Part shown: positions 24,001 to 27,000 of the stretch, one piece after another | Layout of the letters: each line of letters opens with the position of its first letter | How positions within the stretch are numbered: the first letter of the stretch is position 1 | Virus record (IMG/VR): IMGVR_UViG_2721755725_000014 | Length of the DNA stretch: 39,038 bases | Source of the DNA: a virus | Lineage: Duplodnaviria > Heunggongvirae > Uroviricota > Caudoviricetes | Strand: one strand, 5' to 3' | Made by a program: the position numbers

Positions 24001-27000
24001 CCGGCGCGCCGCATCAATGCGCTGTTGCATGTCCTGGCGAACCTCTGCCGGCAACGCTTCAAACTGATTGCCATCCACCTTGTGCGCCCCTGAGTAAATC
24101 AGCGTGATATCAACACCGGCCTGCGCCAGATGACCGGCATAGCTGACATGGCTCATCATCACGCCAATGGAGCCGATACGGGATGTCTGGGTAACCAGCC
24201 GTCGGGAGCAGGCCGACGCCAGCAGCATGGCTGCAGAGCAGGCCGTGTCATTGCACAGTGCCCAGACCGGCTTCTGCTGACGGAGGCGGTAAATCATGTC
24301 AGCGCAGTCAAACGCGCCGGCGGCCTGCCCGCCCGGACTGTCAATGTCCAGCAGTACGCCCCGCACCTGGCTATCCGCCATTGCCTGCTGAAGACAGGCG
24401 ACAATGCCGTCATAGCCTGTCATTCCGGAAAATGGCCGCATACCCCCCAGCCGGTGCACCAGCGTGCCGGTCACCGGCAGTACAGCAATACCGTTCACCA
24501 CCCGGTAAACACGGGCCGGTCGTTTACCTCCGGCCATGTACTCGTCCGTTTCAGCCAGCATTCCGGGAGCATCAAACTGTACCTGCTGTTGTGGTACCGA
24601 AAGACTTGATGCCCCCATCTCGCGCCCGAGCGCGCAAAAGAAAACCCGCGCATAGGCGGGCTCCAGAAGCAGCGGTTCATTGAATGCTGCGGCAATAATG
24701 TGTGAAAGATTACGTCTCACGTGGTGTTGTCTCCTCTTCCGGCCTGCGACTCTCCGCTATCTGCTGCTCATACGCCTGCGCTATCCACACCGGACGTGAG
24801 AGTCCGGCTTTTTGTCGCTCAGCAGATTCCCTGACCTGCTGGCGGAAAATGTCCTGATAATCCTCGCCCATCAGCGCCAGCTCTTTCTCATACGTGCTCA
24901 GTCCGGCCTCAATGCGCATCACTGATTCCTGGACTTCCTTGAGCCCGTCAATGGCCATTCTTCCGGCTCCAATCCACTCAGCCCGTGACCAGGCTGATCG
25001 CGCCTGATAAAAATCAAAACGCGCCCGTGGCGGACGAATAATCCCCCGAAGAAGTGCCTCTTCCAGCCAGCAGGAAAACATCTGCGTGGCCAGCCGGGAC
25101 GCAATAAATTTTCGTCGTCCCATAAAATAGCGCCACGACTCATTGGCGGAGGCGCGGGCACTTGAATAACTGACCTTCGAGTAATCCCGGGACAACTGTT
25201 CGTAGGAAACGCCAAGACCGGCGGCGATATACCGCAGCAGCGCCTGTTCAAGCGCCGAAAATCCATTGTCTGAATCCTGCGCAGTCTGCAGTTTCAGATC
25301 ATTGAACCGCCCCGGGTTTCCTGGAGAGTGTTTTATCTGTGAACTCAGGCTGCCAGATCATCGTTTCCGATGGAAGCATAATAAGCTTTTTCTGCTTCTG
25401 CCGGAGGAGTATGGCCCAGCCTTCCCAGCAATCGTCGATTGTTATACCAGTCCACCCACGTTAGTGTGGCCAGTTCCACTTCTGCACGGTTTTTCCAGCT
25501 CTTACGGTGTATTACCTCCGCTTTGTAAAGACCATTGATGCTCTCAGCCATCGCGTTGTCATACGAGTCGCCTGTACTCCCTGTTGATGCCAGTAATCCG
25601 GCTTCTTTTAGTCGCTCCGTATAGGCCAGTGACACATACTGAGAGCCTTTATCGCTGTGATGGATGGTGCCAGACGGACGACGGGCCCACAACGCCTGCT
25701 CCAGCGCATCCAGCACGAATGTCGTTTCCATAGACGATGAGACCCGCCACCCCACGATGTATCCGGCAAACACATCAATGATAAACGCCACATAGACGAA
25801 GCCCTGCCATGTGCTGACGTAAGTAAAATCAGCCACCCACAGCTGGTCAGGTCGTTCTGCCACGAACTGACGGTTTACGCGGTCGCCTGCGGCAACGGCT
25901 TTCCGGCTGATGGTCGTACGGACCTTTTTACCCCGGAGAACACCGGCAAGTCCCATAACCGCCATGAGACGTGCCACTGTACATCTGGCCACCCTGATTC
26001 CTTCCCGTAACAACTGACGCCAGACTTTACGCACACCGTACACCTGATGATTTTCATCGTATACGCGCTGTATCTCTCTCTTCAGCCAGTCGTCGTGCTG
26101 CGCACGGGCACTGCGTTTATCCGGATGATGTCGCTGTTGCTGACAATGGTAATACGTTGACGGGGCAATATGCAGTTCGCTGCATACCGGTCCGACCCCG
26201 TACTGCTCACGCAGCTTATCCAGCAGTGGCATCATTTTTTCCAGAGGCGGTCGAACTCCGCCTTCGCAAAATAAGCGGAAGCCTGGCGAAGGATATCGTT
26301 ACTGCGGCGCAGTTCACGGTTTTCACGTTCCAGCTCTTTCAGACGCTGACGTTCAGCGCTGGTGAGCCCACCATCACCGCTCCCGGTATCCCTCTCATGC
26401 AGGCGTCCCCAGACACGCAGAGTCTCCGGTGTACAGCCAATCTTTGGGCAATGGAACAAATTGCCGCCCATTGTGAGTCATATTCGCCCTGACTTTCCAG
26501 AACCATATGAATCGCCCGTTGACGGACTTCGGGGGAAAAACGAGTATTTTTAGTCATCCTGTTTACCTCTTTCTCAGGGAGTTTAGTCTCCAGGATTTCC
26601 GGGGCGGTTCACTTGCGTTTACATGGGATAGTTACAGGAGCAGATCGTGACTGGAAAAGAAATCATCCTGGAATATCTGAAAACTCATGAACAATTCTCC
26701 CCACATGAATTAGCACTGATCACCGGAATACCAAATAACAGAATCGCTCAAGCAGCAAGGCATATGGTGAAACAAGGACATTTGAGTGTTGTTGAGCGTA
26801 AGTGGAAGACGGTTATTTATGCAAAACGCAAAGTGAAGAAGGAGCCAATTAAAAGAAATCCAGATGGTACGGGGTGGGGATGTGCAAATCCAATGACGGC
26901 GTTTATTAATAGGGCGCTTATGGAGGTAAGGCAATGACCATCTACATCACTGAGCTAATAACAGGCCTGCTGGTAATCGCAGGCCTTTTTATTTGGGGGA

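Follow-up and report, generated by a model that had tools for sequence, protein, structure and literature searches.

The window analysed here is a stretch of 39,038 nucleotides (IMG/VR record IMGVR_UViG_2721755725_000014) that represents a complete lambdoid prophage of an Escherichia coli O111 genome (enterohaemorrhagic/Shiga toxin-producing E. coli, EHEC/STEC), located in the lambda attachment region. Three effector genes, espJ, cif and nleH, make up its cargo together with lpxR, which encodes a lipid A deacylase. Two copies of an IS629/IS1203 insertion sequence (IS) are present, and the second of these, copy 2, is the main subject: it lacks a target-site duplication and lies exactly on one breakpoint of an inversion within the prophage. 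Over the junction region (24300-27600), strain 11128 (NC_013364.1) and about 30 further complete O111 genomes match the window at 100% identity. Because identity is about 100% in 30 complete genomes, the copy 2 junction is not an assembly artefact. The two IS copies and the immediate surroundings of copy 2 are as follows.

25303-26611, minus strand: IS629/IS1203 copy 2, 1309 bp, both terminal inverted repeats intact, without a target-site duplication
25345-26235, minus strand: orfB of copy 2, intact, 296-amino-acid (aa) DDE catalytic part (Pfam rve, HTH_21, rve_3, rve_2)
26161-26277, minus strand: ALIL pseudoknot, stimulator of the programmed -1 frameshift between orfA and orfB (Rfam RF01497, 121.5 bits, E = 1.1e-32)
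26339-26557, minus strand: truncated orfA of copy 2, 72 aa against 108, frame lost after residue 37
26260-26578, minus strand: 319-bp exact match to a truncated IS629 remnant that lies beside katP (pO111 plasmid)
24710-25302, minus strand: portal gene remnant, 3' 593 bp kept and 5' 1000 bp gone (relative to the portals of phages 21 and PhiR57_1)
26612-26650, plus strand: last 39 bp of a dnaC-like helicase-loader gene (phages mEpX1 and N7)
26647-26937, plus strand: 96-aa gene in the ren position, MarR/Ren-like (mEpX1 annotation; PHROG 1687, E = 6e-40; PHROG 142)
1866-3175, minus strand: IS629/IS1203 copy 1, 1310 bp, intact, flanked by an ATC duplication (1863-1865 and 3176-3178)

Copy 2 is an IS629/IS1203 element of the IS3 family. 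Its ends (TGAACCGCCCCGGG... at 25303 and ...CCGGGGCGGTTCA at 26611) are the same as those of copy 1 and form imperfect inverted repeats of the TG...CA type. Matches to the element in E. coli number in the thousands and are annotated as the IS1203 family (RefSeq 'IS3-like element IS1203 family transposase'). In strain 11128 the RefSeq label of copy 2 itself is 'IS3 family transposase, frameshifted'. Features shared with the IS629/IS1203/IS1203v type (IS3 group, found in EHEC and Shigella) are the 1310-bp length, the TG...CA ends, orfA and orfB in the 0 and -1 frames, the ALIL pseudoknot and, in copy 1, a 3-bp duplication. Copy 2 departs from this type in being 1 bp shorter, in having a frameshifted orfA inside a patch of 13 substitutions and in lacking the duplication. 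The Pfam scores of its orfB equal those of copy 1, in which HTH_Tnp_1 (E = 2e-12) was detected in orfA and rve (E = 9e-28) in orfB. Because its orfA is frameshifted, copy 2 is non-autonomous; both ends are kept, so it can be acted on in trans. A simple insertion of an IS3-family element is expected to leave a target duplication of 3-4 bp, which is seen at copy 1 (ATC and ATC) but not at copy 2 (CAT and CTT). This absence concerns the history of copy 2, not its family membership. An earlier prediction made for this locus from its sequence (hereafter the original prediction) had described copy 2 as a 1309-bp element with no duplication and a 1-bp deletion in orfA, and every one of these factual points was borne out.

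Copy 1, by contrast with copy 2 in its flanks, is a simple and fairly recent insertion, as had also been proposed. This follows from its ATC flanks, from the empty site with one ATC in strain 11128 and from strain DEC9B, the prophage of which is collinear through the site (two blastn blocks overlap by 3 bp). The copy was found in 22 complete genomes. Immediately downstream of espJ it disrupts a short hypothetical gene of 73 aa (WP_000354291.1, minus strand), which it entered two codons in (3176-3181).

The two flanks of copy 2 come from different genes. Its context reads ...CAGATCAT[IS]CTTGCGTTT..., and below a slash marks the position at which the IS, or the former IS, meets its flank. In the native portal genes of phages 21 and PhiR57_1 the left flank continues without interruption (...CAGATCAT/CACCAGGGAAAAGG; GATCAT/CACCAGGG), and in the native dnaC-like genes of phages mEpX1 and N7 the same holds for the right flank (...GGGTGCACT/CTTGCGTTT, also ...GGGTGCACT/CTTGCGTTTACATGG; GCACT/CTTGCG). 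The CAT and CTT beside the IS are thus each native to a different gene and neither is duplicated. Copy 2 therefore joins portal and dnaC-like sequences, which are not neighbours in any native phage. The portal remnant still matches Pfam Phage_portal_2 (profile positions 292-354 of 354). The comparison with native phages thus identified both flanks, and no matching direct repeat emerged from it. The predicted truncation of the portal gene stands. On the other side, where copy 2 had been said to abut the nin region, the IS meets more exactly the last 39 bp of the dnaC-like gene, which are followed by the ren-position gene and only then by the nin genes.

Strain DEC9B possesses an orthologous intact prophage at the same ybhC-ybhB site, several proteins of which are identical to those of the window. 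Its gene order is int, xis, early genes, O, P, ren, nin, Q, S, R, Rz, terminase, W, portal, head, tail, nleH, cif, espJ, and its cargo likewise consists of nleH, cif, espJ and lpxR. Alignment of the window to this prophage gave the following segments.

1-477: ybhB, left border of the window
1-25302, plus strand: collinear with DEC9B (blastn)
26612-36540: segment inverted relative to int and the head and tail genes, containing the dnaC 3' end, the ren-like gene, nin, lpxR, Q, esterase, holin, lysozyme and the first ~10 bp of Rz
26919-36540, minus strand: inverted relative to DEC9B (blastn, 96-99.7% over most of its length)
36541-36558: second breakpoint, where lysozyme/Rz meets int; 18-bp filler TGGATGTGGTGCTGGACG (native matches end at 36540 and restart at 36559)
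36544-37620, plus strand: integrase, first three codons (MGR) replaced by MWCWT at the junction
36559-39038, plus strand: collinear with DEC9B (blastn)
37755-39038: ybhC, right border of the window

The segment 26612-36540 is inverted and copy 2 lies exactly on one of the two breakpoints. The window shares with DEC9B the integration site, int, Q, the lysis and head-tail genes and the effector cargo (phages 21, PhiR57_1 and mEpX1 were also compared). It differs in the inversion, in two missing blocks and in the replication module, which is dnaC-type in the window and lambda P-type in DEC9B. The first missing block amounts to 5.6 kb (the 5' part of the portal gene, W, the large and small terminase genes, Rha and Rz) and the second to ~13 kb (the replication genes through xis). 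As a result the terminase, replication, immunity and excision genes are gone from the prophage, and nleH, cif, espJ, lpxR and the tail genes are kept. Both blocks are absent at the 36541-36558 breakpoint, not beside copy 2 in the present order. The 18-bp filler is neither native Rz nor native xis/int sequence. No source for it was found in DEC9B, in the IS (an 8-mer match only) or in any non-O111 locus compared. Wherever the filler was detected in O111 loci its sequence is conserved, except for one substitution in strain 2013C-3250. The otherwise intact DEC9B prophage itself contains two copies of another IS3-family element (WP_102384962.1), one in the early region and one near the effector end (12284-13512 and 30304-31532 of two DEC9B loci, each with its own numbering); colonisation by IS elements has therefore been recurrent in this prophage lineage.

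Comparison of O111 strains uncovered further changes at copy 2. Four strains (2013C-3250, E2855, 7-15 45A and 7-58 72A) lack the IS and read ...GATCAT/GCGTTT..., having lost the element together with the 3 bp (CTT) beside its orfA-proximal end, at a 1-bp microhomology. Since the CTT missing in these strains is native dnaC sequence, the allele with the IS is the ancestral one, and the alleles without it arose by excision. The four strains could not be grouped by single-nucleotide polymorphisms (8 variable sites in 10.4 kb, none informative). In strain 8E a deletion at a 4-bp GCGT microhomology took the IS and 16 kb to its left, reaching into gene J. In three other strains the IS was kept and flanking sequence was lost: 1311 bp to the right in 95NR1 (26612-27922), 1478 bp to the right in 8B (26612-28089), and both 17.7 kb to the left and 1372 bp to the right in RM9322 (26612-27983). 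In 11128 and further strains the lysozyme gene contains additional IS629 copies, in E2855 with a deletion into int. All three right-side deletions (1311, 1478 and 1372 bp) are close to the 1310-bp length of the IS, and in 95NR1 and RM9322 copy 2 is now of the canonical in-frame type. Deletions of near-IS length next to a canonical IS would be consistent with a second IS having inserted nearby and the two direct copies having then recombined.

IS629-associated small structural polymorphisms, and excision and deletion promoted by the IS-excision enhancer (IEE), have reportedly been described in EHEC by Ooka in 2009 and Kusumoto in 2011. IEE is present in O111:H8 and has microhomology-mediated end-joining activity (PMC9943667). 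Excision of IS629 needs the transposase in trans as well as IEE, and larger deletions are also produced (bioRxiv 10.1101/2023.06.07.543989). The events at copy 2 resemble this spectrum, comprising IS loss, loss of the IS and its flank at a 4-bp microhomology, and IS-retaining flank deletions. The IS-less alleles occur in close relatives, with joints that fall on the IS ends or within a few bp of them and with short microhomology, as in IEE products. Such changes are expected of IS629 in a serotype reported to carry IEE, which was presumably involved. The excision of an element unable to make its own transposase fits the reported action in trans, and copy 1 is a likely source of the transposase. 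Unlike the IEE type, the simple excision of copy 2 is not 'precise': there is no duplication, the IS and 3 bp are removed, and the microhomology is of 1 bp only. If the four losses were independent, they might point to a fixed polarity of IS629/IEE excision, in which the end with the right inverted repeat (IRR) is cleaved and the strand is joined 3 bp outside the left inverted repeat (IRL); this is a tentative reading and on balance an improbable one. Because copy 2 has no duplicated flanks, its loss reveals which flank was consumed on excision (the 3 bp beside IRL), and this is the one mildly novel angle of the case. Such a polarity, if true, would be invisible at ordinary insertions with a duplication.

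The frameshift in orfA has a separate origin. Aligned to copy 1, copy 2 is 98.9% identical, with 13 substitutions and one G missing (GGG at 26446-26448 in copy 2, GGGG at 3009-3012 in copy 1). All of the differences are confined to IS positions 1017-1218, and the remaining ~1100 bp and both ends are identical. In the window the variant sites of this patch, the 1-bp deletion included, lie at 26319-26519, and all 13 substitutions and the deletion are common to the plasmid IS629 remnant. The longest exact match to the remnant is 319 bp for copy 2 and 61 bp for copy 1. On plasmid pE2863-3 the remnant (1195-2015) corresponds to IS positions ~482-1310, is 93% identical to copy 1, has small deletions of its own and sits between parM/stability genes and cytochrome b562/katP. 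Other strains have a variant tract at the same junction that differs in length: 491-1218 in UTME-6, 1017-1218 in the window and 1170-1218 in strain 9662. The UTME-6 tract starts where the homology to the plasmid remnant starts (~482), and in 9662, which has the shorter tract, orfA is intact (frame restored).

Since the patch is identical to the plasmid remnant and tract lengths differ between strains, gene conversion from a dead plasmid copy is the most likely source of the frameshift, and at least one strain has had it converted back. The plasmid remnant appears to serve as a gene-conversion donor for chromosomal IS629 copies. The frameshifted orfA with its 1-bp deletion had thus been correctly noted, but it is part of a plasmid-type patch and not an isolated decay mutation. 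A hybrid IS formed as the crossover footprint between a canonical and a variant full-length IS was also considered and set aside, as the tract matches the truncated plasmid remnant and in UTME-6 begins with it. Gene conversion being the simpler reading, the patch is uninformative on the mechanism of the inversion.

Copy 2 was probably left at one end of an IS-mediated inversion, in which two IS629 copies in opposite orientation recombined and a later deletion removed the reciprocal IS. An intact lambdoid prophage ordered like that of DEC9B would have gained two opposite IS629 copies, one within the portal gene, the other 39 bp short of the end of the dnaC-like gene. Homologous recombination between them would have inverted the intervening ~15 kb, after which each IS would have had one flank from each site and hence no matching duplications. 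A single later deletion of ~20 kb would then have taken the reciprocal IS, the block with the portal 5' part, W, terminase and Rz, and the block from the dnaC 5' part through xis, leaving the lysozyme/int junction. The surviving IS would subsequently have acquired its orfA-frameshift patch from the pO111 plasmid remnant. When the flanks are put back in the ancestral order, the two hypothetical IS copies are inverted relative to each other, which fits because inversion by homologous recombination requires this orientation. After such an inversion, the block from portal 5' to Rz, the reciprocal IS and the block from dnaC 5' to xis would be contiguous, so that both losses follow from one deletion. 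With two insertions, one inversion and a single deletion, this history needs fewer events than the other schemes considered. In E. coli O157 and further EHEC, inversions that arose by homologous recombination of inverted repeats (IS or prophage) likewise have a repeat at the breakpoint and non-matching flanks; here, in contrast to those, the inversion is of ~10 kb, lies inside a single prophage and has only one of the two repeats surviving. The original prediction had implicated copy 2 in a deletion or inversion that removed the terminase and early regions. The inversion does lie at copy 2, but the losses are at the other breakpoint and would be tied to copy 2 only through the deleted reciprocal IS.

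Several observations weigh against this history. The 36541-36558 breakpoint has neither an IS nor a trace of one, and its filler-bearing lysozyme/int junction is not an obvious product of IS-end-directed deletion. Recombination between two IS copies predicts two reciprocal junctions, GGCGGTTCA-CAT-CACCAGGG (IRL-CAT-portal 5') and GTGCACT-CTT-TGAACCGCC (dnaC 5'-CTT-IRR). Neither these nor simple insertions at either site were found in any of 5,426 complete E. coli genomes (chimeric queries, at least 80% query cover), and exact-pattern scans of metagenome and species-representative contigs likewise gave 0 matches. The second IS copy is therefore hypothetical. Moreover, copy 2 demonstrably makes adjacent deletions, so the sequences that flank it today may differ from the sites of the original insertion or recombination. 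The flanks had been taken as a guide to the original insertion targets; their native identity is clear, but with adjacent deletions by copy 2 in three other strains they need not mark those targets.

These adjacent deletions on both sides of a retained IS (in 95NR1, 8B and RM9322), and the other breakpoint without an IS, are what would be expected if the inversion had been IS-independent and IS629 had inserted near the junction later, with deletions trimming the flanks and erasing the duplication. Such a course would cost an IS-independent inversion, at least one insertion and one or two deletions. The ~46 genomes with the lysozyme/int junction all derive from the same portal-IS-dnaC state and no IS-free junction with extra sequence was seen, which makes this explanation rather unlikely. 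A one-step inversion by a single element is also conceivable. IS3-family elements (IS911, IS2, IS3, IS150) and IS30 form head-to-tail dimers that give rise to intramolecular deletions and inversions, and a single IS629 copy, for example in the portal gene, that formed a tandem dimer or another reactive IRR-IRL junction and attacked the dnaC-like target within the same molecule would invert the segment and produce two inverted IS copies, the reciprocal one being lost later. The surviving junction is exactly as this would predict, with the old flank on one side, the new target on the other and no matching duplication, and the sequence offers no distinction from recombination between two independent insertions. 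However, the dimer is a rarer intermediate, and in O111 genomes with at least 40 IS629-related matches independent insertions and homologous recombination come easily; the one-step course is accordingly regarded as unlikely.

The excisions bear on a further explanation, in which the IS-less CAT/GCG allele would be ancestral and IS629 would have inserted into a ready-made junction, with CAT and CTT as the two halves of a mutated 3-bp duplication. The IS with 3 bp does behave as a clean indel between strains, and CAT and CTT are one base apart. Yet CTTGCG is native dnaC-like sequence in mEpX1 and N7, and an insertion at CAT/GCG would duplicate CAT, not restore CTT. The IS-less alleles, moreover, are found both with and without the lysozyme IS, a better fit to repeated loss. 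This order of events is very improbable, and an imperfect CAT and CTT duplication derived from an IS-less ancestor was rejected because CTT is native to the dnaC-like gene.

The 96-aa gene to the right of copy 2 had been suggested to be read from the IS, for which no support was found. The gene is native to the phage, as are its GGAG site and its GTG start codon, which in mEpX1 shares bases with the stop codon of the dnaC-like gene (GTGA). Such a start/stop overlap is the usual arrangement for translational coupling. A consensus scan of both strands detected no sigma-70-like promoter in 26300-27000, and hence none of the proposed outward promoters, although this negative is weak because the scan also missed the IS's own orfA promoter. 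Transcription out of the right IS end would in addition run antisense to the transposase genes. On the opposite side, the portal remnant and the head genes lie downstream of the IS transposase genes and in the same direction, and read-through from the IS toward the portal and head side is more plausible than toward the 96-aa gene. The 212-aa 'phage portal protein' of RefSeq (WP_061104269.1; 24710-25348, minus strand) has a CTG start 46 bp inside the IS end and is an IS-portal fusion frame.

IS-mediated inversion, IS-adjacent deletion, IEE-promoted excision and inter-IS gene conversion are all established in EHEC, so the case is not new biology. A literature search returned nothing specific describing this O111 prophage rearrangement. 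It is a worked example in which IS629 has made a fixed chromosomal island out of a complete lambdoid phage carrying effectors, and the same IS goes on producing strain-to-strain differences in O111, which may help in strain typing. For annotation, a pseudo-IS without a target-site duplication here marks an inversion breakpoint.

Among the cargo genes, lpxR (29933-30892, minus strand; region 29718-31290) lies between ninH with a 72-bp antiterminator gene fragment and an intact Q. It is opposite in strand, is also present in the DEC9B prophage and looks like a moron insertion. In the O111 reference annotation cif (5359-6197) and the minor tail protein L gene (14763-15460) are frameshifted pseudogenes; in RM9322 and DEC9B cif is intact.

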